From positions 1-56,100 of the forward strand of contig JANWLS010000112.1 of NCBI GenBank assembly GCA_025450765.1: 56,100 bases of DNA, read 5' to 3'. Each line of letters begins with the position of its first letter. The stretch's first letter is position 1. The position numbers and the translations under genes were made by a program. This document shows positions 13,776 through 36,995 of the stretch, piece after piece. Under the pieces are notes generated by a model. That model made no database searches. It was not told where the DNA came from and saw only the letters and a program-made list of their open reading frames with translations. This stretch comes from Vicinamibacterales bacterium (GTDB lineage: Bacteria > Acidobacteriota > Vicinamibacteria > Vicinamibacterales > CAVVIG01).

Positions 13776-13780
13776 GGGCG

Positions 13781-14656
13781 CTACGCCGCTTCCTTCTCGG
13801 CCGCACGGCCGGCCGCGCGGCAGCGTTCTTCGGTCTGGTTGAAGGTCGGGCGCACGTCAGCCGGCAGCACGCGCCGGGCGAACTCGACGGCGATGGCCGG
13901 CGGAAAGCCCTTGTAGCTCGCGAGCAGTCCCGCCTTGATGCACTGCGTGTACCGCCCGTGATCCTGCGCCTGCTGCTCGAGGTTGGTGGACATCGGCGCG
14001 ACGAACCCGTAGGACATCAGGATGCCGAGGAACGTGCCGACCAGTGCGGCCGCCACCTTCTCGCCGATTTCCGTCGCCGGCCCGTCGATCGCGCCCATCG
14101 TGATGACGACGCCGAGCACCGCCGCCACGATGCCGAAGCCAGGGAGGGCGTCGCCGACCTTCGACAGAATGTTCGCCGGCTTGGTTTCCTCGTCGTGATT
14201 GACCTGCAGGTCTTCGTCCATCAGCGACTCGAGGTCGTGCGGCGAGATCCCGCCGATGATGATCACCTTCACCGAGTCGGCGAGAAAATCGACCGCATGA
14301 TGCTTGGCGAGGAATTTCGGATAGGTCGACAGGATCGAGCTCTTCTCGGGCTCCTCGAAATGGGCTTCGAGGGACATCACGCCCGACTGCTGGCTGAGAC
14401 GGAACAACTGATACTGCATGGCCAACAGCTCGAGGAAGTCGTCCTTGGTGAGCCCCTTGCCGAGCAGCCCCTTGATTTGCCCGATCAGCTGCTTGACCAC
14501 CTTCACGGGCGTGCTGATCAGCAGGGATCCAAGCGCCGCACCGCCGATGATGATCAGCTCCGACGGCTGCTTCAGGACCAGCAGGTTGCCGCCTTCCATC
14601 AGGTAGCCGGTGAGGACCGACGCGAAGACGAGGATGGCGCCGACGATGAGCAGCAT
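13781..14656 (-). CDS. motA: flagellar stator protein MotA (set 1, E. coli-type, 291 aa)
   Basis: The conserved Pro-containing segments GDALPGFGIVAAVLGVVITMG and ALVGTFLGILMSYGFVAPM. Its ATG overlaps the upstream kinase stop (TAATG at 14654-14658). Confidence 0.9.
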   Translation of the reverse strand: MLLIVGAILVFASVLTGYLMEGGNLLVLKQPSELIIIGGAALGSLLISTPVKVVKQLIGQIKGLLGKGLTKDDFLELLAMQYQLFRLSQQSGVMSLEAHFEEPEKSSILSTYPKFLAKHHAVDFLADSVKVIIIGGISPHDLESLMDEDLQVNHDEETKPANILSKVGDALPGFGIVAAVLGVVITMGAIDGPATEIGEKVAAALVGTFLGILMSYGFVAPMSTNLEQQAQDHGRYTQCIKAGLLASYKGFPPAIAVEFARRVLPADVRPTFNQTEERCRAAGRAAEKEAA

Positions 14657-16824
14657 TAGACGTGCGCCTCCTGCATGGTCCGGAGCAACGCATCCTGAAG
14701 CGATTTCATCGTGACCGGTTTACTGAGCACGCGTGTCACTTCCTCCGGCGGGTTCTCCTCGTAATCGGCCCCCCAGCCGGTGAGCAGCGCGACCGGGGTC
14801 TCCGGCCGCTGCGCCCGGACGCGGCGCGCCAGCTCGATGCCGTTCATGCCGGGCATGCCGAGATCGGTGAGCACGACGTCGAAGTGCTCGCGCTGGAAGT
14901 GACGGAGCGCCGACTCGCCGGAATCCGCAACGGCGACCGTGTGGCCGAGCGCTCCCAGCATGTCGGCGACGCTCTCGAGCACGTCGGGCTGATCGTCGAC
15001 GAGCAGCACGCGCAGGCGTGGCGCGGACGGACGGCCCGCCTTCGCGGTCGCCGCGGCCGCCGGATTCGACGGGGCGGCGGCGTTCGGTTTGGAGGGTTCA
15101 GAAGCTTTCGCCGATCGCGCGGCGCCCTGTGTGGCTGGCAGCACCAGCGTGAACGTGGTGCCGCTGCCCATCGTCGAATGCACCTCGAGCGTGCCGTGGT
15201 GCCGCTCGGCGATCCCCCAGCAGACGCTGAGCCCCAATCCGGCGCCGTCCTTCCCCTTCGTCGTGAAGAACGGCTCGAAGATGCGTTCCTTCACCTCGTC
15301 GGGAATGCCGGTGCCCTGATCGATGACGCTGATGAGCGCCTTGTCGTGCGAGGCGCCCGTGCGGATCACGATCTTGCCGCCGTCCGGCATCGCGTCGATG
15401 GCGTTGAACACCAGGTTCATCAGCAGCTCGCGGATTTCGGAGCTGACCACGCGGACGGCCGGCGTCGGATTCGCCTCGACGAGCACCTCGAACTGCACAC
15501 CGCGGCGCTGCGCGAGCTCGCGCCATCGGGGGCGCGCCAGGTTCACGACGAGTTGCGCCATCTCCGCGAGATCGACCTGTTCCGATTCGGCTTCGGGCGT
15601 CGAGCGGCCGAAGAGCTGCAGGCGCCGGACGATCGCGGCCGCGTCGACGGCGGCGGTGCGGATGGTGTCGAGATCGGAACGGATGGCCAGATCGGGCGGC
15701 GAGGTGTGCAGCAGCCACTCGATCATCCCGAGGATCGTCGTCAGGGAGTTGTTGAAATCGTGCGCCACGCCGGACGCCATTTCGCCGAGCGCGCGAAGCC
15801 GCTGCGCGCGCACCATCTGGTCCTGGGTGGACTGAATCGACGAGAGCGAGTGCTGCAGCTCGCCGCTGAGCCGCGTCTGCTCCGACAGGGCCTGCTCGAT
15901 GCGCGCGTTCGTGGTCTGGAGCTCGTGCACGAGCCGCTCACGCTCGATCTCCGCCTGCTTGCGTTCGGTGATGTCGGTGGCGACGATGATGACGCCGGCC
16001 GTCGTGCCGGCCGCCGTGCGCCGGGGGAAGCGGCGCATCAGGAGGCAGCGCGCCGTGCCGCCCAGGACGATCGCGCATTCCGACTCGAGCGTCTCGCCTG
16101 AGACTTCGACGATCTGATCGCGAGCCACCTGGTCACTGGCGACGTCCGGCGGAAACAGTTCCGCATCGCGCTTCCCGACGACCTGCTCGAGGGGGAGCCC
16201 CAGGGCGGCGAGGAACGCGGCGTTCGCTTCGGTGTAGCGGCCGAAGACGTCCTTGGCGTACACGTAGTCCGCCGTCGACTGGAAGACGCTCCGATAGGGA
16301 TCGCTTTCGTTCACCGCGTGGGACGTCGCGGAGGCGGCCTGCGAATCGTCAGCCCTCTTCCCGCCACGACCGTTCCGGCCGCCGGGCTCATCCTGATGCC
16401 CCCCGGATTCGTCGCGATCGATGATGAGGCTGAACTGTCCGGCGATGAGGCGCATCGCCGCATCCACTTCCGCCGGCAGAAGGCGCGTGTGGCGCCACGC
16501 GACGGCGAGTTGTCCCCAGACGAACGGCGTCTCGACTTCGGCGCCGCCGAAGAGTGCGGCGCCCCGGCTGCCGAGCCAGCGCTCGAGACGATCGGAGGCG
16601 GCGGCGCGCGCGATTTCGTGGGCGGACGCCGGGGGTGCGAGCGGGCCGATGACGAAGGTGGTGTCCTCCGCGCCCGGCTGCTTGTCGACGTCCGTCAGCC
16701 ACACGACGGCGGCGTCGGCATGAAACAGCTCGAGCAGGCTCGTGCCGCAGCGCGAGGCCAGGTTGTGCCGGCCCCGCACCTTGGTGAGCTGCGCGAGAAC
16801 TTCAGCGATGCGATCGAGGTCCAT
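14656..16824 (-). CDS. GAF/PAS sensor hybrid histidine kinase with C-terminal receiver
   Basis: H-box SGVAHDFNNSLT; ATPase boxes NLVFNAIDAMP, DQGTGIP and GAGLGLSV; receiver VLLVDDQPDV...TDLGMPGMNG. A PAS-like segment precedes the coiled coil. Confidence 0.85.
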   Translation of the reverse strand: MDLDRIAEVLAQLTKVRGRHNLASRCGTSLLELFHADAAVVWLTDVDKQPGAEDTTFVIGPLAPPASAHEIARAAASDRLERWLGSRGAALFGGAEVETPFVWGQLAVAWRHTRLLPAEVDAAMRLIAGQFSLIIDRDESGGHQDEPGGRNGRGGKRADDSQAASATSHAVNESDPYRSVFQSTADYVYAKDVFGRYTEANAAFLAALGLPLEQVVGKRDAELFPPDVASDQVARDQIVEVSGETLESECAIVLGGTARCLLMRRFPRRTAAGTTAGVIIVATDITERKQAEIERERLVHELQTTNARIEQALSEQTRLSGELQHSLSSIQSTQDQMVRAQRLRALGEMASGVAHDFNNSLTTILGMIEWLLHTSPPDLAIRSDLDTIRTAAVDAAAIVRRLQLFGRSTPEAESEQVDLAEMAQLVVNLARPRWRELAQRRGVQFEVLVEANPTPAVRVVSSEIRELLMNLVFNAIDAMPDGGKIVIRTGASHDKALISVIDQGTGIPDEVKERIFEPFFTTKGKDGAGLGLSVCWGIAERHHGTLEVHSTMGSGTTFTLVLPATQGAARSAKASEPSKPNAAAPSNPAAAATAKAGRPSAPRLRVLLVDDQPDVLESVADMLGALGHTVAVADSGESALRHFQREHFDVVLTDLGMPGMNGIELARRVRAQRPETPVALLTGWGADYEENPPEEVTRVLSKPVTMKSLQDALLRTMQEAHV

Positions 16825-16877
16825 GTCTCTACGAGTCTTCAGTCTTCAGTGCTCAGTAAGAACCGGGTGTCTGCTCC

Positions 16878-17909
16878 TCATTGCACCGTCGTCGAATGGC
16901 GATCGATCAGCCGCAGCCAGGCCTGCACCACGTCGGGATCGAACTGGGAGCCGGCACACCGTACGAGCTCGGCCGCCGCGCGGACGCTGGTGACCGGGTC
17001 GTGGTACACGCGCGCCCAGGTGAGCGCATCGTAGGTGTCCACCACCGCCGTGATGCGCGCGCCGATCGGAATCGCGCCGCCGGCGAGCCCCTGCGGATAG
17101 CCGCTGCCGTCCCACGCTTCGTGGGACGCGAGGACGATCTCGGCGGCCGGCTTGAGGGCCGGCACCACCGAGACGATGCTGTGGCCGATCTGCGGATGCG
17201 TCCGGATGATGGCGATCTCCTCGTCGGTCAGCGGACCCGGCTTGTGGATGAGCGCGTCGGGCATCGCCACCTTGCCGATGTCGTGCAGGAGCGCCCCCCG
17301 CTGGACGTGGACACGCTCGGAGTCGGCGACCCTCAAGACCTCGGCCAGGGCCGCGGCCATGCTGGCCACGCGCTTGGCGTGCTCGAAGGCTTCCGGGTTG
17401 CGCGTGTTCAGCGTGATGAGCAGCGCCTCGAGCACCGACGAGGAGATGTGCTCGATCTCGGCGAAGGCACTGGCGAGCTCCACGCTCCGGCGTTCAATGG
17501 CATCTTCGAGGCGCTTCCGCTCCTGCGCGAGCCGGCGGTTCGTGTCGCGCCAGCGGACCGCGCGATCGACGGAGTCGATGAGCTGCTGCTGCGTGAGCGG
17601 CTTCAGCAGGTAGTCGAGGACGCCCAAACGCATCCCTTCGACGGCGGCGTCGAAGCGCTGCATGCCCGTCACCATGATCAGGGCGAGCTCCTCGTCCTGC
17701 TCGCGGAGCCGGTGCGCCAGCGCCACGCCGTCCTGGCCGGGCAGGGCCAGGTCGAGCAGCGCCACATCAGGCCGTTCGCGCGAGATGACCTCGAGCGCCT
17801 CGTCGGCCTCGCCGGCCGTCATGCAGTGATAGCCCTGGCGCGACAGCCAGTCGCTCAGCAGCCGCCGGATCGCCGGCTCATCGTCGACAACAAGGATGTT
17901 TGCGTCCAT
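16878..17909 (-). CDS. response regulator with HD-GYP domain (RpfG-like c-di-GMP phosphodiesterase)
   Basis: Receiver ILVVDDEPAIRRLL...DLALPGQDG, plus HD-GYP motifs LLHDIGKVAMPD and SHEAWDGSGYPQGL. The start is chosen at the ATG at 17909 (MDANILVVDD), which is preceded by AAAAAGGCGG. The ORF is open to 18020. Confidence 0.85.
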   Translation of the reverse strand: MDANILVVDDEPAIRRLLSDWLSRQGYHCMTAGEADEALEVISRERPDVALLDLALPGQDGVALAHRLREQDEELALIMVTGMQRFDAAVEGMRLGVLDYLLKPLTQQQLIDSVDRAVRWRDTNRRLAQERKRLEDAIERRSVELASAFAEIEHISSSVLEALLITLNTRNPEAFEHAKRVASMAAALAEVLRVADSERVHVQRGALLHDIGKVAMPDALIHKPGPLTDEEIAIIRTHPQIGHSIVSVVPALKPAAEIVLASHEAWDGSGYPQGLAGGAIPIGARITAVVDTYDALTWARVYHDPVTSVRAAAELVRCAGSQFDPDVVQAWLRLIDRHSTTVQ

Positions 17910-17948
17910 GACCGCCTTTTTCAGGGGCTCCGCCCCGAGTAACAAGGT

Positions 17949-18032
17949 GGTCATCGGCCCCGACGGCCGGAGGCTTGAACGTGTGCGCTTCCGCCCGCGC
18001 GGTTCAAGAATCGCGCGCACGTGCCGATGACC
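17949..18032. promoter_or_regulatory. nested dyad carrying two back-to-back sigma-28-like promoter motifs
   Basis: The outer arms ggtcatcggc (17949-17958) and gccgatgacc (18023-18032), and the inner arms cttgaac (17974-17980) and gttcaag (18002-18008), share one symmetry centre. The plus strand reads TCAA-N15-GCCGATGA and the minus strand reads TCAA-N16-GCCGATGA, compared with the consensus TAAA-N15-GCCGATAA. Confidence 0.4.
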
Positions 18033-18040
18033 AGTGAGTC

Positions 18041-18532
18041 ATGAGAATCCTGATCGTCGACGACGAAGCGTCGATCGTCGAGCTGCTCGCCTCGGTCTGC
18101 GTCCGCGACGACCATGACGTCGCGTCCTGCACGGCCTCGACGGAAGCCCTGGCCTATCTCGACGCGAACCACGTCGACCTCCTCATTACAGACATCGCCA
18201 TGGGGCCGCCGGACGGTCTGCAGCTGATTCGGCAGGCCCGGGAAAAGCATCCGCAGCTGCTGGCGATTGCGATTACGGGGTACGCGGGACGCTATGGGCT
18301 GGAGGACGTGCTCGGCGCCGGCGCCTCGGACCTGATGTTCAAGCCGTTCCGGATGGACGAACTGCGCGCCCGCGTGGCGCTGGCGGACGAACGGCGGCGG
18401 ATGGTAGAAACCCTGAATGCGCGTCGCCAGACGCTGCAGCAGATGAGCGCCGATATGATCAAGGGTCTGGAGCAGGAGCTCCAGGAAGCCCGGCGCCCGA
18501 CGCCGCCCCGCACGGCCGCCCACAAGATGTAG
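18041..18532 (+). CDS. single-domain (CheY-like) response regulator with short C-terminal helix
   Basis: MRILIVDDEASIVELL...DLLITDIAMGPPDG...AITGY...DLMFKPF; 163 aa with an ATG start. Confidence 0.8.
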   Translation: MRILIVDDEASIVELLASVCVRDDHDVASCTASTEALAYLDANHVDLLITDIAMGPPDGLQLIRQAREKHPQLLAIAITGYAGRYGLEDVLGAGASDLMFKPFRMDELRARVALADERRRMVETLNARRQTLQQMSADMIKGLEQELQEARRPTPPRTAAHKM

Positions 18533-18554
18533 GCCCGCCGACCCGCCACCATTC

Positions 18555-18570
18555 GGGCACATCCGTTGCT
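18555..18570 (+). promoter_or_regulatory. sigma-54-like -24/-12 promoter motif upstream of the Maf-like operon
   Basis: gGGCAC-atccg-TTGCt matches TGGCAC-N5-TTGC at all positions except the first T. It lies 23 nt after the regulator stop and about 130 nt upstream of the ATG at 18699. Confidence 0.4.
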
Positions 18571-18698
18571 CCCTCCCTGGCCGGGACGAAGGCCAGGACC
18601 TACTCCCACTGAAAGTGCTCCGTTTTCGTGCCGGCCGGCGTGCCGGCACCAGCCGCCCACGCCGGGTGTCCGGCAGCGGTGTCGGCCCGACGACCGTC

Positions 18699-21536
18699 AT
18701 GCACACGGTGGAAGCATTTCTCGACAGCCCTGAGGGGCGATCGATCCGGCTCCATAGCGGGCGCGACCCGGTCGGAGAAGCCGCCCGATGGCTCGATAGC
18801 GCCCTGCCGGGTGGCGAGGTCCCCGAGTTTCTCGTGCTGCTCGGCGCCGGTCTTGGGTACGTGTTCGACGCGCTGGAGACGCGCGCCGTGCGCCCGCGCG
18901 TCTTGCTGATCGAATCGGACCCAGCGCTGCTCGCCGCCATGCGCGCCCGGCGCGACTGGAGCGGCTGGCTGGACAGCGGCCGACTGATCGTCCTTTCGGG
19001 CCCGGACTACGCCGGCCAGGGCGATGCGTGGCGGCATGTGCCGCGTCCGGAGATCGACTGGCCCGTCCTCGCCCATCCTGTGCTGCTCCGGGAGCGGCCC
19101 GCTGCGACCAGGGCCGCCCAGGCGGTCGCAGAGCGCATCCTCTTCGATGCGCGCGCCAACGCGGACAGCCGCACGGCGCTCGCTCGAACCTACCTCCTGC
19201 ACACGCTCGCCAACACGGGTGTGATCGCCCGCGAGGGGAACGCCGGTGCGCTGTTCAATGCATTTCCAGGGGTGCCGGCGATTGTCATCGGCGCGGGTCC
19301 TTCGCTCGATTCCAATCTCGACGCGCTGGCGACGGTCGGCGATCGCGCGCTGATGATTGCGGCGGACACGGCGCTCCGTCCCCTGCTGTCGGCGGGCGTC
19401 GCTCCGCAGATCGTGTTGGCGGCCGATCCCAGTGAAGCGAACGCGCGACACTTGCAGGATCTGCCACCGTGCGGCGCAACATGGCTCGTCGCCGAAGGCA
19501 GCGTCGGCTCCGGAGCCTTCGCGGCATTCGCCGGCCGCACGTTCGTCTTCCGGCTCGGCACGCACGAGCCCTGGCCGTGGCTGGAATCGCTTGGGATCGC
19601 GCGCGCATCGCTCCGCGCATGGGGCTCGGTCGTGACGTCAGCCTTTGACCTGGCGATTCAGGCAGGCTGCGACCCGATCATCTTTGCGGGGCTGGACCTC
19701 GCGTTCACGCGTGAGCGTCCGTACTGCCGGGGAGTCACGTGGGAGGAGGACTGGGCCCGCGAAGCACTCCACGGTCAGTCCGGCAAGCCGCTGGCACAGA
19801 CCTGGCGCGAGAGCATGGCGCGCTGGAAGCTCACCACCGAACAGGGCATCGACGGACACCCGGTGACGACCGCGCCACACCTGCAGGCCTTCCGGAACTG
19901 GATTGTCGAGCAGACGCCCACACTTGGGCGGCGCATCGTCAATGGAACGGGCGCCGGCATTCTCGTCGGCGGCGCGATCGAACAGCGCGACCTCGCGGGT
20001 GCCGTTCGTGAATGGCTGCCGGTGGACCCGCTCGACCTGCAGGCAACGCTGCGCCGCACCCACGCCCATCGCACGGATGGCCCGAGAACTCAGGAACGTA
20101 TGCCAGCTCTGTTGACCGAGTTGGCGCGCACCACAGCCGGCGCAGCACGGCGCGACCCGATCGACGCCTGGGTGGCGTTTGCCCCTGGCGTGGACGCTGA
20201 AGCGATCCGAGTCGCCCTCGGCGATGCGTGTGAGATGCTGGCGGCGCCTGCCCCTGCTCCACCACCGTCGATCGCCCCCCCCGTCCAGCCGCAAACCGTC
20301 TGGGATCCCTTCGTCGGGTTGATTCGAGTCCCGCCGCCTGAACGCGCGGCGACGCTGCACGCCGCGGCTGTTGACCAGGTCATTCCAGAGTGGGTGCGGC
20401 ACTCGCGCGACGTCCGCATCGCCGACGATGTTGATTCGACATCGCTCGTCCATGCGATCGAGTCAGCCCTGCGCGCGGACGCGTATCCGGCTCGGCGTCT
20501 CGACGAACTGGTGGCGTCGTTCATCCTGAGGTTCGAGGCGGACGCCGACCGCGCCGCCCACTCGTGGCGCCTGCTCGCGGCGTGGATGGCCCGCCAACCA
20601 GCGCACACCGCCCTTCCCCGTATTCTCAACGGGCTGCTTTCCTTGTCGGCCTGGCCGAGCCCTGATCCGTGTGAGCCCTCCCAGGCACCGCCACGCTCGG
20701 TGCTCGAGTCGACCGTCATCAGGCGGCTGACACCGCGTGTCCTCACGAATGAAGGCGTTGGCCGGGGCGTGTCTGTCCACACGTTCGACGATCGGCACGC
20801 CATCGTGACGCCCTATGGCGGACGGTGCAGCGTCCTGGTGGCAGAGGACGGCTCGCACCGCCCGCTGCCCGAGTGGCCACATCCGATCGTCGCGGAAGTG
20901 CCGTGGGGCGCGGAGGGCGGCGCGCTGGCGTGGGGGAATCACGACCGCCAACATTCGCACCTGATGTTTCGGCGCACAGGCCACAGCACGCCCGAGATCG
21001 AGGTGCTGCCCTTTTCGGCAGGCGCCACGCTCCTGACGCGAGAAGATGGAACGGCGATCTTTCCGAGTCATCACGGCGGGCTGTGGCAGTGGGCGCCGGG
21101 CACGGGCGCTCACAGAATGGCGGAAGCTCCGCCGTGCATCGGGATCGGTCGGCTCGCCGACGGCATCCGGCTGGATCCCGTGTCGCGCGATGCCAGGGAT
21201 CGACCCACTCGAGACCTGGCGCGCGACGCCTTCCTCTATCGCGTCGGACACGTGGAGCTCACGCGAGTGCCGCTCGATCGACGCGGTCAGCGATGGTCGC
21301 TGGCGACAGCGGCTGGCTGGACCGCGACGGCGTTTCCACAGACCGACCTCGTCCATGTCGTTCAGGCGTCTCGCCGGCGAGCCTTCGATCTCGTCTGCGA
21401 TTATCCCGTCGCCCTCGGCTGGGCCGGTCGCAGCCTGATCGTCGCCACGTGCCACTCCGAGATTCTCCTGTTCGGCCAGCTGCAGACGTCGCTCGACGCA
21501 GCGGACGCCACCGCAGAGCGGCACCGTCATGACTAG
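18699..21536 (+). CDS. Maf / MptE-like (DUF115) motility-accessory-factor-type protein with a long uncharacterised C-terminal region
   Basis: The DUF115 core FPGVPAIVIGAGPSLDSNLDALATVGDRALMIAADTALRPLLSAGVAPQIVLAADP (nt ~19275-19430). ATG at 18699 (MHTVEAFLDSPEG); the ORF opens at GTG 18615. About 500 C-terminal residues have no recognisable family. Confidence 0.75.
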   Translation: MHTVEAFLDSPEGRSIRLHSGRDPVGEAARWLDSALPGGEVPEFLVLLGAGLGYVFDALETRAVRPRVLLIESDPALLAAMRARRDWSGWLDSGRLIVLSGPDYAGQGDAWRHVPRPEIDWPVLAHPVLLRERPAATRAAQAVAERILFDARANADSRTALARTYLLHTLANTGVIAREGNAGALFNAFPGVPAIVIGAGPSLDSNLDALATVGDRALMIAADTALRPLLSAGVAPQIVLAADPSEANARHLQDLPPCGATWLVAEGSVGSGAFAAFAGRTFVFRLGTHEPWPWLESLGIARASLRAWGSVVTSAFDLAIQAGCDPIIFAGLDLAFTRERPYCRGVTWEEDWAREALHGQSGKPLAQTWRESMARWKLTTEQGIDGHPVTTAPHLQAFRNWIVEQTPTLGRRIVNGTGAGILVGGAIEQRDLAGAVREWLPVDPLDLQATLRRTHAHRTDGPRTQERMPALLTELARTTAGAARRDPIDAWVAFAPGVDAEAIRVALGDACEMLAAPAPAPPPSIAPPVQPQTVWDPFVGLIRVPPPERAATLHAAAVDQVIPEWVRHSRDVRIADDVDSTSLVHAIESALRADAYPARRLDELVASFILRFEADADRAAHSWRLLAAWMARQPAHTALPRILNGLLSLSAWPSPDPCEPSQAPPRSVLESTVIRRLTPRVLTNEGVGRGVSVHTFDDRHAIVTPYGGRCSVLVAEDGSHRPLPEWPHPIVAEVPWGAEGGALAWGNHDRQHSHLMFRRTGHSTPEIEVLPFSAGATLLTREDGTAIFPSHHGGLWQWAPGTGAHRMAEAPPCIGIGRLADGIRLDPVSRDARDRPTRDLARDAFLYRVGHVELTRVPLDRRGQRWSLATAAGWTATAFPQTDLVHVVQASRRRAFDLVCDYPVALGWAGRSLIVATCHSEILLFGQLQTSLDAADATAERHRHD

Positions 21537-22848
21537 CCTGGCGATACCTCGGGTTCCAGACTCGCGCAATCCCGATCTCCTCCAGTCGGCGCGAGGTCCG
21601 GCCCTGGAGCGCGAGGTCGCGAAATACACGCGCGATGAGCTCCGGGCCCTGCTGCGCGACGACCCATGGCGGGCCAACCATGTCGTGAATCTCCGCGAGT
21701 TCCTGTCCGGCGAGTCGGTCCTGACCACCTATCCATGGGACGTGTCGATTCCGATTGCGGACATCTGCAATGCACGCTGCCCGTTCTGCACCTCGTGGTT
21801 TCAGGGCACACGGTGTCTCCTCCTGGACGAAGTCGACGCGCTTGCGCCCGTGCTGCGGCATGCCGCTCGGCTGGCGTTGGCTGGTCACGGTGAGCCGCTC
21901 GTCCACCCGCAGTTCGACGCCCTCGCGGATCGGCTGACCGCCCTCCTCGATCCCCGATGCGTCACGTACCTCATTACCAACGGCCTGCTCCTCGGCCGGC
22001 GGCTGGACGTCCTCCTCCGGTTTACTCGTGGATTCACCGTCAGCCTGAACGCCGTGACACCGACCACACACCAGGAGGTGATGCACCTTGGACCGGATGC
22101 CCTGCCAGGCATCCTGGAAGCGGTCCGGCATCTGATCCATCGGCGGGACACGATCGCCCCCGGCATCGATGTCAGCCTCTCGTTCGTCGTGATTCAGCAG
22201 AACGTGCACGAGCTCGCCCGCTTCATCGAACTTGGCAACGAGCTTGGCGTCAATCGCCTCTTCGTCCGCACGCTCGCGCCCCAGGGGGGGCTCGGCACCG
22301 GGTTGAACTACCATGCGCTGCCGCCGTACCTGCATCGTGACTTCAAGGCGCTCGTGTCGAGGGCGGCGGACGCCGTTCGCTCGTCGTCCGTGCGTGTGGT
22401 CGGCGACCTGGCCAGTCTGGCCGCGCCGGTATTCCCGGCTGGCGTGGAACGGCAGATCCGGGAGAATCCACCGCCCGTTGTTCCTGTTTCCGAGATCCTT
22501 CGCAGCGGCCGGGGGCGCTCCGGTGCCGATGGACGAGGGGTGAACGGCAGGGGGCGCCTGCTCGCCACTCCGGCCCTCGACGCTGAAAGCGATCACGAAA
22601 ACGTGTACGACCGATCGGCGCGCTACGCCTGTCGTGCGCCGTACCACTTCTTGTATCTGAACGATTTCGAATTCCGGATGAGCCCGTGCTGCTACATGAC
22701 GCATGTGCCCGGGTTCGAAGCGACGCACTACGACGGCGGCTTTGATTTCTTCCAGGTGTGGAACAGCCCGGCGATGGTAGAACTGCGGCGGCGCTTGACC
22801 CGGGGGCCGCTGCTCGGCCCCTGTTTGCGGTGCCCACCCATTTACTGA
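21529..22848 (+). CDS. radical SAM enzyme with C-terminal SPASM/twitch-type Cys-rich domain
   Basis: Cluster motif ADICNARCPFCTSW (CxxxCxxC), then ALAGHGEPLVHPQ. The C-terminus CRAPYHFLYLN...SPCCYM...WNSPAMVELRRRL...CLRCPP is typical of SPASM domains. The start overlaps the upstream stop (ATGACTAG, 21529-21536). Confidence 0.8.
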   Translation: MTSLAIPRVPDSRNPDLLQSARGPALEREVAKYTRDELRALLRDDPWRANHVVNLREFLSGESVLTTYPWDVSIPIADICNARCPFCTSWFQGTRCLLLDEVDALAPVLRHAARLALAGHGEPLVHPQFDALADRLTALLDPRCVTYLITNGLLLGRRLDVLLRFTRGFTVSLNAVTPTTHQEVMHLGPDALPGILEAVRHLIHRRDTIAPGIDVSLSFVVIQQNVHELARFIELGNELGVNRLFVRTLAPQGGLGTGLNYHALPPYLHRDFKALVSRAADAVRSSSVRVVGDLASLAAPVFPAGVERQIRENPPPVVPVSEILRSGRGRSGADGRGVNGRGRLLATPALDAESDHENVYDRSARYACRAPYHFLYLNDFEFRMSPCCYMTHVPGFEATHYDGGFDFFQVWNSPAMVELRRRLTRGPLLGPCLRCPPIY

Positions 22849-22875
22849 CACGCGATACAGACCCGAGGTAAGCGA

Positions 22876-24297
22876 ATGGCAAGAGTGATGCTCGTGCAGC
22901 CGTGGAGCTACCACGATGAGAACGTGACGGGCCAGGACCTCGGGGAGCAATGGCGCAACGGCCCCTACTCGCTCGTGCTCCTCGGGACCATTCTCCGTCG
23001 CGAGGGCCACGAGGTGCGGATCGTCGACATGATCCGCGATGTGGTCGTGCTGAACGGCTCGGTTGACGGGTGCCTGCACCAGTTCGGCCTCGCGCTCTCG
23101 GAGTTCAGGCCCGACGTGGTCGGGTTCGGCTTCTTTTCCATTCACTATGCCGAGGTCATCCGAGCGGTCGACTACGCCAGGGCCGAATGTCGACGAATCG
23201 GAATCGCCCCGATCTTCATCGCCGGTGGGATCCACGCGTCGACCGAGCCCGCGCTGACGCTGCGGGACATGCACTTCGACCACGCGTTCATCGGCGAGGC
23301 CGATGTCAGTCTCGCACGGTTCGTTTCGACCGCCTCTCCAGACGGCATTCCAGGCATCGTCTCGAATCCTGCCGATCCGGTGAACCCGGGAGAAGCGATC
23401 AGCAGGCTCGATGATCTGCCGTTCCCGGACTGGTCCCTGGTGGACTACCGGTTCTACGCTCAGCCATCGCGCGGCAAGCTGAAGACGCGGAAGACCAGAA
23501 GTCTTGATTTGATGATGGGCCGCGGCTGCGTCTACAAGTGCACGTTCTGCGCGTATCCGACGCTGTCATCGGTCCGCTTCTATTCCGCCGAATACCTCGT
23601 CGAGCAGGTTCAATACATGCACCGGGAGTTCGCGATCGACAGCGTGTACTTCACAGATTCGACGATCGGGAACAACCGGCGGCTGATTACGGCGTTCTCG
23701 GAGGGCATGATCCGGAGCGGCCTCGCGCGGCACGTCGAATGGCATGCGAACATCCGCCCCAATCAGGTCAATGAGGAGATTCTCACACTGATGTGGGCAG
23801 CCGGATGCCGGTTCCTGTTCTATGGATTCGAATCGGGCAGCCAACGCGTCCTCGACCTCATGGCGAAGGGGTGCAAGGTCGGAGACAACGACAAGGCCGC
23901 GCGACTCCACGAGCGCCTCGGATTCCCCTACCACGCCAGCATGCTGCTCGGATTTCCCGGCGAGCGCGAAGAAGACATCCAGGAGACACTGGCGTTCATG
24001 CGGCGTTACACGCCTCCCAGCATGGGCGTGAACTGGTACGTGCCGCTACCGGGGTCTCCGGATTACGACACACTGAAGGCGCAGGGCGCCCTCGACGTCG
24101 GAGATCCGAAGCTCTGGAGAACGATTGGCGAGGTGAACAGCGCGCGCGTGTATGCCGAGGTGCCGGAAGCTCGCTTCCGTGAACTGTTTTCGGAGGCGGA
24201 ACGCATCGCCAACGTCGACGCACCGGCGCGTGCGCGGGCGCTCTGGGGATGCCTGGCGCCGCCCCATTCGGCGCTCGATCTGCCCGCTGCGTCCTGA
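22876..24297 (+). CDS. B12-binding-domain radical SAM enzyme
   Basis: An N-terminal Rossmann-like B12-binding segment (VMLVQPW...LGTILRREGHEVRIVDM) followed by MMGRGCVYKCTFCAYP (CxxxCxxC). GAGG lies 7 nt upstream of the ATG. Confidence 0.85.
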   Translation: MARVMLVQPWSYHDENVTGQDLGEQWRNGPYSLVLLGTILRREGHEVRIVDMIRDVVVLNGSVDGCLHQFGLALSEFRPDVVGFGFFSIHYAEVIRAVDYARAECRRIGIAPIFIAGGIHASTEPALTLRDMHFDHAFIGEADVSLARFVSTASPDGIPGIVSNPADPVNPGEAISRLDDLPFPDWSLVDYRFYAQPSRGKLKTRKTRSLDLMMGRGCVYKCTFCAYPTLSSVRFYSAEYLVEQVQYMHREFAIDSVYFTDSTIGNNRRLITAFSEGMIRSGLARHVEWHANIRPNQVNEEILTLMWAAGCRFLFYGFESGSQRVLDLMAKGCKVGDNDKAARLHERLGFPYHASMLLGFPGEREEDIQETLAFMRRYTPPSMGVNWYVPLPGSPDYDTLKAQGALDVGDPKLWRTIGEVNSARVYAEVPEARFRELFSEAERIANVDAPARARALWGCLAPPHSALDLPAAS

Positions 24298-24312
24298 GGT
24301 CTCCGGCTGGTG

Positions 24313-27300
24313 CTACGCCGCCTCGGCGGACGGGCTCCCCGCTTCGAGCTCCCGCAGGTACGCCGCCGCCTTCCCGTGCGACGGCTGCGCCGCCAGCGCC
24401 CGCAGGAAGTGGCGGCGAGCCTGTGCACGGCGATCCTCCTGCAGGTCCAGCTCACCCAGATGGAAGTGACAACTGGCTCTGATCTGCGCCTCGATGTCCG
24501 GGGGAGCCTTCTGGTGCCTCAACGCACGATTGTAATATCGTCGGGCCAGATCGGGCCGTCCGATCTCACGATAGGCAGACGCGAGACGCTGCGCCATCAG
24601 CGCGCGTGGCTCGGCGCCGTTTCGTACCAGCCGTCGGTACAACCTGGCTGCCACCCGATGTCGGCCGGAGCGAGCGGCGAGATGGGCCGCTTCGAAGAGA
24701 ACTCCGGACTGGAGCTCAGCATCGGTCTCTTCCAACCCCAGCATGCGTGCGTACACGCTGTAGGCCTCCTCCACACGATCGTCGTCGCGCAGCGATCGTG
24801 CCTCAGCAAGAGCACTCAGCGGGAAATCGAAGCTGGCCTCGATGCCGATCGGTGCGTCTACGGCAAATGGGTTCACGACCTGTTCGTAAGGCAATCGGCT
24901 GTAGGCCGCGTAGCGATCGGCCGCCGTTTGGGACCCGAGCACCGCTGGCGCCCGATCATCGCGCGCGATCGCGGCCGCTGATCGGATGGGAATCCCAGCC
25001 CAGATTTCGCCCGCGTATTGCGCATCGTCCGTATAGATCGCCGTGATCCGCAGGTTCAGCTGCCGAACGGCCGCCACGAGCAGCGGCGTCATCACGGCAT
25101 CGAGCCCCAGGATCCGAACGGCCGTGGTCTGCGGAGGAAGCAGAACGCGCAGCCGCGCGATCAACGCGCCCTGCAGCCGCAGCGTTCTCCGGCGATAGTC
25201 GCGCAGCAGGAGGCATGGAATATCCGAGGTACCAGGCGAACCGAACGCCAATTCGCTCCATTCTTTCTCGATCGACGAATCGAGCATCCAATCTGCCGTC
25301 CCGCCTGAAGAAAGCATCCGCACGCCGACGTTCGCCTCCTCGGCCCCCCCAGCCTCCTGAATCCTCCGCCAGAACTCGAGTAGAGGCATGGAGGCGAGCT
25401 CGTCGAGGCCTCCAAGTCGCTCGTACGTTTCCCGCCGGAACAGGAGAACGGAAGCGGGCCTGTTCGAGGCAGGCGTACCCGCACACGACAGGGCCATCAG
25501 CTCGGGATCCTGGTCGAAGCGCCGCATCAACTGCGCCACATCGCGAGGCGCACATTCTGCTGCTGTCGCCAGTAGACAAATGCGCCGGCCTTTCGCTCGC
25601 GCCAGCGCTTCGTTGATGGCGACCGTCCGGGTTCGTCCCCGGACAATGTGAACCAAGGAGGCGTCGAAGGCCGGCACGGGCACGCCGTCCTCCACTGAGA
25701 GCAGTATCTCAGCTCCCGAGTGCTCGTAAGTAGCCACCAGGCGCTCGATCGACGCCGCCCCAGACGGCACCGGACAGATCACCGACAGATTCGGACCGCG
25801 TTCCTCCGGCGTGAACAGGCGCACCGCCGAGGGCCCCTCGCTGACCTCTACCGCGGCCGTCAAGCCCCAGTCGCGGCGGTTCACATACGGCTTGGAGGAA
25901 TCCCACCATGGTCCGAACGGCGCGGCTTCGTGCTTGTCGCCGTACTTCTGGACCGCAGTCACGAAGGACCCATCGTGGTCCAGGTGGAAAATCTCGCCGA
26001 TCATCCTGCTCGGCAGGCCATGGCGATGGCACTGGATACAGAACTGCCCGTCCTTGTAAATCTTCGCGAACTTCACCAGCTCGTTGAAGCCGCCGACCCG
26101 GTGATAGCTCGCGCGATCCAGCAGCAGGAAGTCGCCCGCGCCGTTCACGTAGTACGGCGGCTCCACCTCGTTGCGACGGAGATGATTCCGGCAGTTCTCA
26201 AAGAGGTCCCACGTGGCCTCGCGCCAGCCGACGCGGCGATCGACATCGATACGCAGCGCTCGATAAAGCGTGCCAGGAACCAGCGGGCCGCGCGCGAGAC
26301 ACTCGATGACGTCGCGCGAGTAGAAGATGTCGGTATTGCTCGTCAGAATCCAGTCCGCCTGAGACCGGCGGATGGCCACGTTCTTCGCGAAAAACTCCAT
26401 GAAGACGAGCCGCGGATTCTCGCAGAGCTTCTCGTGCCACGCGGGGCTCACGACGTACGCGCGCGTCCACCACGGCAGGCGCTCCCTGATGATGTCGGCC
26501 AGCAACGGCCGGCCGGGCGTGGGATTCCACTCCACGAGCGTGAATTCGTGAGGAATACCCGCCTCGGTGAGGGCGCGATGGTTGAACGCCGCCGCCGCGA
26601 ACATCCGCTCGTTGAAGTCCTGGCCACCAAAGCCATCGTTCCGGCCAGTGAGGACAATTTCGAGTGTCCCGCCGCCAGCCGCCAGACCAGGACGCTCCAG
26701 CTCGGCCGAGAATCCGAATTCCCGATACAACTCGTGAATCTGAGCAGGGTTGATGGCGCCGGCGCGCAACAGCCGATCGGCCGTCTCATGTCCGCTGCGG
26801 ACGATTTCGTGCTGGCCCTGGCCGCGAGCCGCTGACACGTTGGTGAACACCGTGAAGCCGGGGCATTCTGCGGCCGCCTTGTAGCTCCTGTTGGAGTCGG
26901 GGACAAAGCCGACGTCCGTGATCGAGGTCCCGCTCACGTGCCCGGGCGGGTACGCAAAGGTGACCTGCTCGTAGCACCCCTTCAGCTCGTCAACGAAACG
27001 CGCGACGCTCGCGTGGTGCACGCTGTCGTGCAGCACGACCACTTTGGGCCGCAGCGCGAGCACGTTGCGCCAGTCCGCACGGACGCCGTCCTCACCGTGG
27101 TCGCCATCGATGAACACGAGCTCGAATGTCCGCCCCTCGGTGGCCAGCTTCGGGAGCAGGTCTCGCGAATCGCCGACGAGGAACTCGATCGCCCCGTCGA
27201 TGTCCGGGCGTACGGCCGCCGAGATCTCGCGGTTTCGAGCCAAGCCCGAGGCGAACGTCCGGGCACCGAAGGGAATGTCGATTGTCGTGACGCGGCAGTC

Positions 27301-27492
27301 GCGTCCGAACGCCGTGCCCGCGGCGGCCATGCTCAGGGCGCCGATGCCGGTACTCGTGCCGATCTCCAGGATAGTGCGTGGCGCGTGGAGCAGGACGAGC
27401 GACGCCAGGAAGGTGTACTCTTCGGCCGAGCAGGCGTTTCCGCCGCCGAAGTCCATCTGCTCCAGCTGTTCGAGATCGAGCAGGTACGGCAT
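24313..27492 (-). CDS. multidomain enzyme: class I SAM-methyltransferase + GT-A-like glycosyltransferase module(s) + Rossmann-like segment + C-terminal TPR repeats
   Basis: The ATG at 27492 (MPYLLDLEQ) lies 7 nt after the upstream stop. MTase segment: LHAPRTILEIGTSTGIGALSMA...VFIDGDHGEDG. GT-A-like segment: IVLTGRNDGFGG...TLVEWNP...TSNTDIFYS...GAGDFLLLDRASYHRVGGFNE. The C-terminus has TPR-like repeats. Paralogous to 31503-33746. Confidence 0.75.
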   Translation of the reverse strand: MPYLLDLEQLEQMDFGGGNACSAEEYTFLASLVLLHAPRTILEIGTSTGIGALSMAAAGTAFGRDCRVTTIDIPFGARTFASGLARNREISAAVRPDIDGAIEFLVGDSRDLLPKLATEGRTFELVFIDGDHGEDGVRADWRNVLALRPKVVVLHDSVHHASVARFVDELKGCYEQVTFAYPPGHVSGTSITDVGFVPDSNRSYKAAAECPGFTVFTNVSAARGQGQHEIVRSGHETADRLLRAGAINPAQIHELYREFGFSAELERPGLAAGGGTLEIVLTGRNDGFGGQDFNERMFAAAAFNHRALTEAGIPHEFTLVEWNPTPGRPLLADIIRERLPWWTRAYVVSPAWHEKLCENPRLVFMEFFAKNVAIRRSQADWILTSNTDIFYSRDVIECLARGPLVPGTLYRALRIDVDRRVGWREATWDLFENCRNHLRRNEVEPPYYVNGAGDFLLLDRASYHRVGGFNELVKFAKIYKDGQFCIQCHRHGLPSRMIGEIFHLDHDGSFVTAVQKYGDKHEAAPFGPWWDSSKPYVNRRDWGLTAAVEVSEGPSAVRLFTPEERGPNLSVICPVPSGAASIERLVATYEHSGAEILLSVEDGVPVPAFDASLVHIVRGRTRTVAINEALARAKGRRICLLATAAECAPRDVAQLMRRFDQDPELMALSCAGTPASNRPASVLLFRRETYERLGGLDELASMPLLEFWRRIQEAGGAEEANVGVRMLSSGGTADWMLDSSIEKEWSELAFGSPGTSDIPCLLLRDYRRRTLRLQGALIARLRVLLPPQTTAVRILGLDAVMTPLLVAAVRQLNLRITAIYTDDAQYAGEIWAGIPIRSAAAIARDDRAPAVLGSQTAADRYAAYSRLPYEQVVNPFAVDAPIGIEASFDFPLSALAEARSLRDDDRVEEAYSVYARMLGLEETDAELQSGVLFEAAHLAARSGRHRVAARLYRRLVRNGAEPRALMAQRLASAYREIGRPDLARRYYNRALRHQKAPPDIEAQIRASCHFHLGELDLQEDRRAQARRHFLRALAAQPSHGKAAAYLRELEAGSPSAEAA

Positions 27493-27499
27493 GGCGTGC

Positions 27500-28261
27500 T
27501 CAGCTCCGTCTGAGGAGATCGAACCAGTTGAAGTCATCGTCGTGAAAGTTGAAGGCGAGGACCGGATCGAAGCGTCGCGGCGCCAGCAGAGAAAGGACTT
27601 TCGGCAGGTCGTACCATTCCGCCCAGGGTGTCCCCTCCCCATCCGTGTTTACGCCCCACCGGGCGAACGGAACCGCACCGTCGCGCACCCACCGCTCCCG
27701 CGGATAGGCGAGCTGAATCCAGCGTCCGCCGATGCGCAACTTCGGGACGAGGCACGCCACTTCCTGCTTCATGAAGTCGAACGGCGCGTGATGGAGCGAT
27801 CCCTGCGCCCAGATGACGTCGAAGCTCTCATCCTCGAGTGCGCACAGTGACGACAAATCCTCGATATGCAGGAAGCAGACGTGATGAAGGCCGAGCGCCC
27901 GCGCGAGACGTTCGAGCACGCGAAGGTTCTCGGCCACAATATCGGCGCAGGTGACGGAGGCTCCTGCCTGCGCCCAGGAGAGCGCGTCGAGACCGAAGCC
28001 GCTGCCATAATCGAGGACCCGCGCACTGGTCAGCAGCGGCTGGTAGAGCGTGTGATACCAGCCGCGCATCTCCCATCGCGATCGTTCTGCGTTTCTGATC
28101 GATTCCCAGCAGGCGACGAGACGATCGTCTGTGAGCGTGGCGAGCTGACGAGAAGAGAGCCTCTCGCCATCGACGTCACCCGGAATCTCGTGCCACTTGC
28201 CGCGCAACCTCCCGAACCAGTCATCCAGGATGACGTTGGTCGTCGCTGCGCTCCGTACCAT
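27500..28261 (-). CDS. class I SAM-dependent methyltransferase (tandem paralogue A)
   Basis: Motif I VLDYGSGFGLDALSWAQAGASVTCADI, then FDVIWAQGSLHH. The start is taken at the ATG at 28261 (MVRSAATT...), 4 nt after the paralogue's stop. Its C-terminus ...DDDFNWFDLLRRS mirrors that of the neighbour. Confidence 0.75.
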   Translation of the reverse strand: MVRSAATTNVILDDWFGRLRGKWHEIPGDVDGERLSSRQLATLTDDRLVACWESIRNAERSRWEMRGWYHTLYQPLLTSARVLDYGSGFGLDALSWAQAGASVTCADIVAENLRVLERLARALGLHHVCFLHIEDLSSLCALEDESFDVIWAQGSLHHAPFDFMKQEVACLVPKLRIGGRWIQLAYPRERWVRDGAVPFARWGVNTDGEGTPWAEWYDLPKVLSLLAPRRFDPVLAFNFHDDDFNWFDLLRRS

Positions 28262-28265
28262 GTCG

Positions 28266-29030: not shown

Positions 29031-29214
29031 TGCCTGCTCCACCAGATGGACGGCTGGCCGATTCCAGTGCCGGCCGGCCGGACAGACCGGTGCCCCGCCG
29101 TCGACCGGCCAGCACGGATGTGCATGGCTTTTCGCCCGGATATGCAGCTCGAGGCTGCCGGGGGGCCGTCGGCGCGGCGTCGGGATGGACGGGGAGCAAA
29201 CGGTGTTCCGGGAT

Positions 29215-29268
29215 GTCCGGGGTCCGAAGTCCGAGGTCCACTCCCTCGTCCGACGTCCAACGTCTATC
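29215..29268. repeat. heptad-phased GTCC(G/A)NN array
   Basis: gtccggg gtccgaa gtccgag gtccact (29215-29242), a 5-nt break, then gtccgac gtccaac gtctatc (29248-29268). The array overlaps the stop codon of the GT2-TPR gene and starts a 220-nt non-coding gap. Confidence 0.7.
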
Positions 29269-33746: not shown

Positions 33747-33751
33747 GGCCG

Positions 33752-36979: not shown

Positions 36980-36995
36980 GTGCTCCTGCGTGCCG

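Follow-up and report, generated by a model that had tools for sequence, protein, structure and literature searches.

The 56,100-nucleotide (nt) stretch of DNA analyzed here (the window), from contig JANWLS010000112.1 of a Vicinamibacterales bacterium, a soil acidobacterium, carries three consecutive genes that encode a Maf-like protein and two radical S-adenosylmethionine (radical-SAM) enzymes, here called rSAM-1 and rSAM-2. Closely spaced and conserved as one unit, the three genes lie within a ~38-kb motility-associated glycosylation island of the Vicinamibacterales genome. From the comparison with related loci, we propose with moderate confidence that both radical-SAM enzymes belong to a glycan-tailoring toolkit that was recruited into this Maf glycosylation island. 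The window has a G+C content of ~67 %, and G+C by codon position, the basis on which genes were chosen, gave one clear gene set. The open reading frames described in an earlier note, which had been made from the sequence alone, are all present on the + strand, and rSAM-1 and rSAM-2 are identical to HEY7790403.1 and HEY7790404.1 (100 % for rSAM-2) of a Vicinamibacterales (Acidobacteriota) metagenome-assembled genome. The three genes are as follows:

18699 to 21536, + strand: Maf-family (PF01973/DUF115) putative nonulosonate protein glycosyltransferase, 945 amino acids (aa) from the ATG
21529 to 22848, + strand: rSAM-1, SPASM/twitch-type radical-SAM enzyme, 439 aa, with CNARCPFC (PF04055, E = 5e-10)
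22876 to 24297, + strand: rSAM-2, predicted cobalamin-binding (class B) radical-SAM enzyme, 473 aa, with GRGCVYKCTFC

The Maf/MptE-like identity that the earlier note had given to the 945-aa protein, from motifs that are indeed present (PAIVIGAGPSLD, MIAADTAL and IVLAADP), was borne out by a Pfam profile search and by comparison of the predicted fold with the solved Maf structure 5MU5. The MptE-like profile PF01973 scored 114.3 bits (cutoff, 34.6) and was covered from position 3 to position 170 of 171 by residues 197 to 366 of a 973-aa form, which would start at an alternative GTG at 18615; this core is encoded at about nt 19203 to 19712. A sequence search of the Protein Data Bank (PDB) gave a single match, 5MU5 from Magnetospirillum (E = 9e-5). 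The same structure was the top Foldseek match (E = 1.9e-15; 609 aligned columns; TM(target) 0.43) of an AlphaFold2 (AF2) model computed from 35 homologues, with a predicted local distance difference test score (pLDDT) of 88.6 and a predicted TM score (pTM) of 0.84. All later matches were six-bladed beta-propellers (virginiamycin B lyase, NHL) that align to residues ~645 to 925, encoded at about nt 20631 to 21473; the propeller consensus is kept across the 35 long Maf homologues aligned and is missing from 5MU5. Given the PF01973 score and the top fold match to 5MU5, the 945-aa protein is a genuine Maf-family member with an extra C-terminal beta-propeller. Its score against the NCBIfam profile of PseD (NF050051) is 19.7 bits at a cutoff of 670, which places it by profile as a distant family member and not as a PseD orthologue. 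Its homologues number more than 600, mostly of 1000 to 1130 aa, and the few that are named at their source are called [quoted passage not shown] or "DUF115." In Shewanella, Maf-1 binds flagellin via a tetratricopeptide repeat (TPR) domain at its C terminus, and Maf-2 needs a separate factor, GlfM (10.1101/2023.12.03.569772); the propeller may likewise serve to bind an acceptor or a partner.

The Maf stop codon (TAG) and the rSAM-1 start codon (ATG) share an 8-nt overlap (ATGACTAG, 21529 to 21536), rSAM-1 ends at 22848, and a GAGG ribosome-binding site lies in the 27-nt spacer that leads to the rSAM-2 ATG at 22876; both junctions read directly as the earlier note had reported them. Across a gap of 15 nt, the rSAM-2 stop faces that of a convergent gene encoding an 1109-aa protein. 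In the closest relative found (L001; related loci are cited by L numbers), gene order, 8-nt overlap, and 27-nt spacer are all kept at aa identities to the window proteins of 57 % for Maf, 67 % for rSAM-1, and 75 % for rSAM-2, which makes the arrangement more than chance. Four further loci (L002, L083, L084, and L086; rSAM-2 71 to 73 % identical) have the order UDP-sugar dehydrogenase, methyltransferase, methyltransferase, rSAM-2, Maf, without rSAM-1.

The radical-SAM core of rSAM-1 is recognized by PF04055 (40.3 bits; cutoff, 29.5), and the cysteines of its C80-x3-C84-x2-C87 motif are invariant in 26 homologues. The earlier note had also described a cysteine-rich C terminus of the SPASM type. 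The cysteine richness stood, as did a SPASM/twitch assignment at the level of the family; the window protein itself has no match to the Pfam SPASM profile (PF13186), and its C terminus holds five invariant cysteines (C368, C387, C388, C432, and C435) instead of the seven of the SPASM motif. Calling the enzyme SPASM/twitch type is fair at the family level because four family members reach PF13186 (22.2 to 25.3 bits; cutoff, 21.5; model positions 15 to 67 only, the second half) and because the Prokaryotic Genome Annotation Pipeline of NCBI names the identical protein "radical SAM/SPASM domain-containing protein." The five cysteines fit one twitch-type auxiliary cluster, which rSAM-1 probably holds. 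An AF2 model (pLDDT 90.3) has NifB, DesII, BlsE, SkfB, SuiB, and MoaA as its nearest folds, all with similar scores, so that the predicted fold belongs to the SPASM/twitch group, which includes sugar-acting enzymes (DesII and BlsE among these neighbors), and does not permit a specific assignment; the last 104 residues of rSAM-1, searched by sequence against the PDB, gave only chance antibody matches. The family comprises ~100 clusters (50 % identity) at an E value of ≤1e-30 among 1.84 billion representatives and has a conserved N-terminal extension of ~70 aa with the pattern DPW...N..WE...SYPW.

For the second radical-SAM protein, the N-terminal B12-binding segment and the radical-SAM core proposed in the earlier note were both confirmed, by PF02310 (E = 4e-11; 43.2 bits at a cutoff of 32.1; aa 31 to 148) and by PF04055 (E = 5.5e-18; 66.1 bits; aa 214 to 374), with C218, C222, and C225 invariant. 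From these domains, rSAM-2 is predicted to be a class B (cobalamin-dependent) radical-SAM enzyme. None of the NCBIfam equivalogs was reached (best, TIGR04013, 109 bits at a cutoff of 251), so that it falls in no characterized subfamily (HpnJ, BchE, PhpK, QCMT, TsrM, and others), and its profile matches in the PDB, of at most 65 bits, cover the core only (QCMT, AprD4, TsrM, OxsB, and TokK). BchE, HpnJ, and lipid-type enzymes were rejected as identities, since their scores are far under cutoff and the context is one of glycan genes and not of pigment or hopanoid genes. The family has more than 300 matches at 50 to 75 % identity. An Rfam scan of the window returned a tRNA only and no cobalamin riboswitch near rSAM-2.

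Directly downstream of rSAM-2, and convergent with it, lies an operon of glycosyltransferase, methyltransferase, and sugar-nucleotide genes, in which GT2 and GT4 denote glycosyltransferase families:

24313 to 27642, − strand: 1109-aa protein with an MT_24 methyltransferase domain, domain X, and a C-terminal TPR (Pfam); convergent with rSAM-2
27500 to 29042, − strand: MTa (27500 to 28309) and MTb (28266 to 29042), tandem class-I methyltransferase paralogues (Pfam MT_11/25; 62 % identical)
29264 to 31506, − strand: GT2-TPR glycosyltransferase (29264 to 30400) and GT4 glycosyltransferase (30397 to 31506) (Pfam)
31503 to 33842, − strand: unk779, 779 aa, domain X and a C-terminal TPR, no Pfam match save a weak TPR
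33752 to 37054, − strand: two NAD-dependent epimerase/dehydratases and a UDP-sugar dehydrogenase (Pfam), recurrent neighbors of both radical-SAM families
36996 to 37994, − strand: unk332, 332 aa, with faint MT_24 similarity, elsewhere fused to rSAM-1 and adjacent to rSAM-2

Domain X is an undescribed region of ~300 aa that occurs in unk779 (aa ~20 to 330), in the 1109-aa protein (aa ~310 to 620), and in a protein of the Nitrospirales locus L142 (11396 to 12763). It carries the motifs SRNDDHGG, KNVGIRRARG, ATNxD, NACGDF, and HIEH, in which RND..G, N..RR, N.D, GDF, and H are invariant. A PDB profile search with domain X found no match at an E value of ≤1, and Pfam at an E value of ≤5 gave a faint GT49 match on one homologue only. 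Residues 299 to 1096 of the 1109-aa protein and unk779 are paralogues (34 % identity over 830 aa). Four glycosyltransferase-type proteins of the island are fused to TPRs (29264 to 30400, 24313 to 27642, 31503 to 33842, and the 973-aa GT2-TPR-GT1 protein at 52196 to 55117). TPR domains of FlmG and Maf-1 bind flagellin (10.1101/2023.12.03.569772), and the domain-X and GT2 proteins have TPR tails that would, by this likeness, be consistent with assembly of a glycan directly on protein. The operon is headed by a glutamine-dependent NAD-synthetase-like gene (CN_hydrolase and NAD_synthase; 37900 to 39585, − strand), a 656-aa paralogue of which stands beside an epimerase in several rSAM-1 loci (L142, 4407 to 6377; L003, L008, L013, L014, L024, and L102); its product may be an amidotransferase making a uronamide rather than a housekeeping NadE.

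Whether the radical-SAM genes belong with Maf can be judged from where else they occur. Clear orthologues of rSAM-1 (n = 26, one genome per species) are found in Nitrospirota, Terriglobia, Vicinamibacterales, Planctomycetota, several Alphaproteobacteria, and a Brucella species. Within 10 kb of these, tblastn searches detected Maf, rSAM-2, and Mot genes in none of the 26 genomes and NeuB in one (L023, which also has an ATP-grasp homologue), while domain X was present in 14, the UDP-sugar dehydrogenase in 12, and an epimerase in 11. In the annotated locus L142, Wzm, Wzt (with Wzt_C), a methyltransferase, an MT_24 protein, a NadE-like protein, an epimerase, an MT_21 protein, and a protein without assignment precede rSAM-1, followed by a domain-X protein, the UDP-sugar dehydrogenase, four glycosyltransferases, and Bac_transf; this is an O-polysaccharide locus of the ABC-transporter type. 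Fusions point to the same partners, since rSAM-1 is joined to domain X in one protein cluster (P0180), to an unk332-like domain in two (P0361 and P0367; 48 to 53 % identity), and to an FkbM-type MT_21 domain in three (P0214, P0217, and P0219).

The surroundings of rSAM-2 were taken from a metagenome scan. Of the 23 orthologous loci that extend ≥1 kb to each side of rSAM-2, 19 carry an MTa/MTb-like class-I methyltransferase within 1.2 kb of it, usually at less than 200 nt, and in four clusters (P0295, P0296, P0299, and P0325) the two are fused. Among the 24 orthologue loci of at least 6 kb, 18 hold an MTa/b-like methyltransferase, 10 domain X, 8 the UDP-sugar dehydrogenase, and 4 unk332, which adjoins rSAM-2 in L086, L088, L093, and L113; Maf is present in 4, all of the clade with 71 to 73 % identity, a nonulosonate gene (a cytidylyltransferase) in 1, and rSAM-1 in none. 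The annotated locus L141 reads GT2, a 781-aa protein without assignment, rSAM-2, methyltransferase, MT_24, GT2, two methyltransferases, UDP-sugar dehydrogenase, acetyltransferase, epimerase, Bac_transf, and Poly_export, and is an exopolysaccharide (EPS) or capsule locus.

These counts do not uphold a reading of the radical-SAM pair as a Maf- or nonulosonate-specific module, which the comparative data weaken for both families (Maf in 0/26 and 4/24 loci, NeuB in 1/26, a nonulosonate gene in 1/24). The earlier note had stated that the proposal would fail if the two genes were conserved elsewhere only in unrelated contexts without synteny to Maf or flagellar genes; such synteny is essentially missing for rSAM-1 and partly so for rSAM-2, and the part about unrelated contexts did not hold, the other loci still being glycan loci. 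All conserved partners of the radical-SAM enzymes (MTa/b, domain X, unk332, the UDP-sugar dehydrogenase, and the epimerases) are encoded in the window at 24313 to 37994, and the functional unit is therefore most likely not "Maf plus two radical-SAM enzymes" but a toolkit that elsewhere serves lipid-linked polysaccharides and in this lineage has been joined to an island of Maf, nonulosonate, and stator genes. Because these partners sit in the convergent operon, the substrate is likely a sugar of the heteroglycan other than the nonulosonate.

We also sampled islands starting from Maf homologues (L140/L146, L143, L144/L145, and L147). In L140/L146, Maf stands beside a GT2-TPR/GT4/methyltransferase operon with no radical-SAM gene. 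Nor is there one in L143, a close relative (PseB 79 % and MotB2 71 % identical) that has Maf, a 769-aa methyltransferase, GT2-TPR, and the PseB-MotB-MotA order and in which Maf is 44 % identical to that of the window. The order in L144/L145 is MotBA, histidine kinase, MotBA, histidine kinase, Maf, GT4 genes, and a different B12 radical-SAM gene, so that these loci share the MotBA-histidine kinase-Maf order with the window (MotA1 59 % and histidine kinase 50 % identity), and L147 combines sugar-nucleotide genes, Maf, giant multi-glycosyltransferase proteins, a methyltransferase, and a sulfotransferase. Long Maf genes thus reside consistently in large, variable glycosyltransferase/methyltransferase islands, often with MotAB, and the radical-SAM genes, present in two of the five island types under this sampling, are an optional accessory of them. 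The B12-binding radical-SAM gene of L144/L145 (19165 to 20805, − strand; 546 aa), which lies inside a GT4 operon beside another long Maf, was rejected as an rSAM-2 orthologue, its 25 % identity marking a different family; Maf islands seem to have acquired B12 radical-SAM enzymes on more than one occasion.

On its other sides the three-gene operon is flanked by regulatory and stator genes and, beyond the convergent operon, by NadE, an OPT transporter, and a cluster of nonulosonate genes on the − strand, after which come an NHL protein, the giant GT2-TPR-GT1 protein, and another methyltransferase. The stator genes and the nonulosonate operon that the earlier note had reported nearby are both there, MotAB even twice (12945 to 14656 and 42920 to 44578):

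12945 to 18020, − strand: MotB1, MotA1, hybrid histidine kinase, and a response regulator with an HD-GYP domain (Pfam), upstream of and divergent from the Maf operon
12945 to 14656, − strand: the MotA1/MotB1 set within it
18041 to 18532, + strand: CheY-like response regulator, 163 aa, receiver domain only (PF00072, E = 1e-22, aa 3 to 112) with a short coiled-coil tail
41776 to 50615, − strand: Pse-like nonulosonate operon with embedded stator (Pfam; NCBIfam scores all under equivalog cutoffs)

The 3' end of the response regulator gene is also found upstream of Maf in L001. The nonulosonate operon has the order PseB-like, MotB2, MotA2, cytidylyltransferase, ATP-grasp, NeuB/PseI-like, HAD, PseG-like, PseC-like, and because every Pse assignment falls below its NCBIfam equivalog cutoff (PseB, 118.6 bits versus 407.8; PseC, 352.5 versus 423.5; PseG, 68.7 versus 153.6; PseI, 267.2 versus 340.3), it represents a divergent Pse-like (pseudaminic acid-like) pathway; PseH was not recognized among the NCBIfam matches of the operon. 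The PseB-like gene is separated from the remainder of the operon by the MotB2/MotA2 pair (41776 to 44578, − strand; MotAB at 42920 to 44578), and the PseB-MotB-MotA order is kept in L143 (12320 to 14418; PseB 79 %, MotB2 71 % identity). The ATP-grasp ligase and the HAD hydrolase (45540 to 46655 and 47702 to 48400, − strand) suggest an N-acylated or amino acid-decorated Pse-like sugar.

Aligning the region upstream of Maf with that of L001 revealed one further feature:

18556 to 18569, + strand: sigma-54-type -24/-12 element GGCAC-N5-TTGC (GGCACATCCGTTGC), which fits the GG-N10-GC pattern, 46 nt ahead of the GTG start of Maf and 130 nt ahead of its ATG

It is the sole exact match to GGCAC-N5-TTGC in the window, where 0.57 would be expected by chance, and its weight comes from its recurrence beside Maf in related islands. 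It is kept upstream of Maf in L001 (95 to 108) and in L144/L145 (9743 to 9756); in L140/L146 it lies on the opposite strand of the divergent intergenic region between Maf and GT2-TPR (L140, 9926 to 9939, − strand), and in L143 (4395 to 4408) directly after Maf, ahead of the next gene. In L140 and L146, moreover, a gene for a sigma-54-dependent NtrC-type regulator lies ~1 kb from Maf. Flagellar genes are commonly under sigma-54 control, and by its motif the Maf-rSAM-1-rSAM-2 operon is probably driven by sigma-54. A scan of positions 17800 to 24600 for terminators and sigma-70 promoters gave nothing above chance.

From what is shown above (the identities of domains and folds, the geometry of the operon, synteny, co-occurrence, and gene fusions), we infer a chemistry, a substrate, and an acceptor as follows. 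Maf would install a Pse-like nonulosonate, made by the operon at 41.8 to 50.6 kb, on a protein acceptor, and the TPR-fused glycosyltransferases would extend the sugar that it installed. The class-I and MT_24 methyltransferases together with rSAM-2 would methylate the growing glycan, rSAM-2 at an unactivated carbon; most likely a C-methyltransferase, it would share its sugar substrate with the MTa/MTb-type methyltransferase. With the domain-X and unk332 proteins, rSAM-1 would probably oxidize, epimerize, or decarboxylate a sugar derived from a UDP-uronic acid. The product would be a heavily methylated heteroglycan on a Maf-installed sugar, most probably on flagellin.

Several observations weigh against this model of a recruited toolkit. 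Cobalamin radical-SAM enzymes are not all methylases, and we know of no characterized member of either the rSAM-1 or the rSAM-2 family. The similarities of both families to NCBIfam and PDB entries are generic, at roughly 40 to 110 bits, and the nearest solved relative of rSAM-2 by sequence, QCMT (9CCB; identified as such via PMC12931638), is a protein C-methyltransferase. Domain X looks like a divergent GT-A glycosyltransferase and is a candidate for one by its motifs only, since the PDB profile search was empty and Pfam gave no more than the faint GT49 match. The co-occurrence counts are tblastn hits of window proteins within ≤10 kb and not a full annotation. The sigma-54-type element, taken by itself, is within chance expectation for the window. 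Finally, a tblastn search with the N- and C-terminal domains of Salmonella FliC found no flagellin in the window or in the 147 loci fetched, where very divergent flagellins could escape it, and for this reason the identity of the acceptor is unproven.

Among the other ways to read the island, the radical-SAM enzymes could tailor the nonulosonate itself, for example, C-methylating or oxidizing the Pse-like sugar, or CMP- or UDP-linked precursors of it, ahead of or following its transfer by Maf. This would suit the co-transcription with Maf kept in L001, the rSAM-2 genes that adjoin Maf in L002, L083, L084, and L086, the divergent nonulosonate operon with its extra ATP-grasp and HAD genes in the same island, and the NeuB and ATP-grasp homologues of the rSAM-1 locus L023. 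However, nonulosonate genes occur within 10 kb in only 1 of 26 rSAM-1 and 1 of 24 rSAM-2 loci, with Maf in 0 and 4, and the partners that are kept are the UDP-sugar dehydrogenase, epimerases, domain X, and methyltransferases of O-polysaccharide and EPS loci, which makes tailoring of the nonulosonate rather unlikely. Direct modification of the protein acceptor, for example, C-methylation or cross-linking of flagellin residues, appears quite improbable to us. Its attraction is that the best solved sequence relative of rSAM-2, QCMT, is the glutamine C-methyltransferase of methyl-coenzyme M reductase (MCR), and that the peptide maturases SkfB and SuiB are among the fold neighbors of rSAM-1 and maturases of ribosomally synthesized and posttranslationally modified peptides (RiPPs) among the NCBIfam matches; yet all of these similarities are generic matches to the core, the two families reside mainly in polysaccharide loci (Bac_transf, Wzm/Wzt, and Poly_export) without an obvious protein target, and their fusions are to glycosyltransferase-like and methyltransferase domains and not to a peptide-recognition domain such as the RiPP recognition element (RRE).

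It is also conceivable, and in our judgment unlikely, that the island is not flagellar at all, the propeller Maf glycosylating another surface protein or acting in polysaccharide synthesis, with the adjacency of Mot genes being regulatory or historical. Flagellin and flagellar structural genes were found neither in the 56-kb window nor within 10 kb of Maf in L140, L143, L144, L146, and L147, a protein of ~1000 aa with a propeller and a PseD score of 19.7 bits is unlike the characterized Mafs, and the radical-SAM toolkit is elsewhere associated with polysaccharides. Against this stand the linkage of Maf to MotAB in three independent loci, the MotAB pair inside the nonulosonate operon, the sigma-54 elements and the sigma-54 activator, as in many flagellar regulons, and the fact that the characterized Mafs all act on flagellin (PMC11339370 among others). 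That the adjacency is without functional meaning, independent genes having been juxtaposed in a hypervariable island, is hardly to be expected: L143, with PseB at 79 % and MotB2 at 71 % identity, has a different Maf (44 %) and no radical-SAM genes, which are found in only two of the five Maf-first island types, but the stop/start overlap and the spacer length are kept at 57 to 75 % identity, and all fusion and adjacency partners of both radical-SAM enzymes are encoded directly downstream in the convergent operon.

Returning to the recruited toolkit, a more specific version of it can be put forward only tentatively, namely, that rSAM-2 with the class-I methyltransferase and rSAM-1 with unk332 and domain X form a widespread uncharacterized pathway that modifies uronic acid-derived sugars of surface glycans by radical chemistry (C-methylation for rSAM-2; oxidation, epimerization, or decarboxylation for rSAM-1) and has here been grafted onto Maf to give a C-methylated flagellin heteroglycan. 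If true, this case would be a first for cobalamin-dependent radical-SAM chemistry in either protein glycosylation or the assembly of polysaccharides, and domain X would be a new glycosyltransferase family. The toolkit is spread over Acidobacteriota, Nitrospirota, Planctomycetota, and Alphaproteobacteria, where it occurs in loci for O-polysaccharide and EPS. One characterized member would give a function to hundreds of genes and could uncover, in abundant soil bacteria, new sugars that are C-branched or C-methylated. What began as a single odd operon thus becomes a testable proposal, in which two uncharacterized radical-SAM families with fixed partner genes look like a sugar-tailoring toolkit. 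The long propeller Mafs, with hundreds of homologues, would likewise add a further solution to the choice of acceptor, beside the TPR of Maf-1 and the partner GlfM of Maf-2.

The earlier note knew of no such combination in described glycosylation islands, and we agree: literature searches that combined Maf, flagellin glycosylation, polysaccharide, or C-methyl with (cobalamin) radical SAM returned no relevant paper, and none linking Maf or flagellin glycosylation with radical-SAM enzymes. A paper on a Campylobacter HS:19 radical-SAM enzyme was set aside, as that enzyme belongs to a capsule locus and not to Maf, and nothing useful on motility or flagella of Vicinamibacter was found in the searched literature. 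In a 2026 review of B12 radical-SAM enzymes (PMC12931638), the words "sugar," "glycan," "polysaccharide," and "flagell" do not occur. Taken singly, Maf islands, SPASM/twitch enzymes, and B12 radical-SAM enzymes are of known kinds; undescribed in the searched literature are their combination, the propeller Maf, and the toolkit of radical-SAM enzymes and partners.

Elsewhere in the window, two more radical-SAM genes, encoding a 390-aa protein without assignment (7290 to 8462, + strand) and MoaA with Mob_synth_C (8512 to 9531, + strand), have no relation to the glycosylation island. At the left end, a tRNA gene (5127 to 5200, − strand) is followed by a stretch of lower G+C content with an AbiEii toxin-type gene (1240 to 1851, − strand), probably a small mobile islet unrelated to the glycosylation finding.

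Compared with known enzymes, rSAM-1 shares with BtrN, DesII, BlsE, and MoaA the CX3CX2C core and a cysteine-rich C-terminal region for auxiliary clusters, and differs from these SPASM/twitch sugar and nucleotide enzymes in its five conserved cysteines, its N-terminal extension, and its fusions with domain X, unk332, and FkbM domains. Similarly, rSAM-2 has the N-terminal B12-binding Rossmann domain followed by a CX3CX2C core that is common to class B enzymes (TsrM, TokK, OxsB, QCMT, and the GenK/Fom3 type), whereas its adjacency or fusion to a class-I methyltransferase in glycan loci sets it apart from the named class B subfamilies. AprD4, another of its PDB relatives, is listed by NCBIfam as a diol-dehydratase and not as a B12 methylase.

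The window Maf has the PF01973 (MAF_flag10) core, the whole three-domain Maf fold, and the GxGPS and DP motifs in common with the described Maf systems (5MU5, PseE/Maf of Campylobacter and Helicobacter, Maf-1 and Maf-2 of Shewanella, and Maf of Clostridium botulinum), as well as its placement, within one island, beside genes for nonulosonate biosynthesis and motility. It is ~15 % identical to 5MU5, no flagellin gene was found near it, and the window has no GlfM-type partner of the sort that Maf-2 needs. Co-transcription of Maf with two radical-SAM genes is absent from the Maf loci described in the searched literature. Like Maf-1, the window Maf carries an extra C-terminal module, a TPR in the one and a six-bladed beta-propeller in the other. 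At the level of the whole island, the closest parallels are the flagellar glycosylation island (FGI) of Aeromonas, with its Fgi glycosyltransferases, and the FlmG systems of Caulobacter and Brevundimonas, which also combine a nonulosonate pathway with extra glycosyltransferases and methyltransferases in one island. FlmG resembles the window proteins in the fusion of a TPR, which in FlmG binds flagellin, to a glycosyltransferase; in the window domain-X proteins, by comparison, the TPR is C-terminal. Relative to both systems, the window island is much larger and richer in methyltransferases, and it adds domain X and two radical-SAM enzymes.

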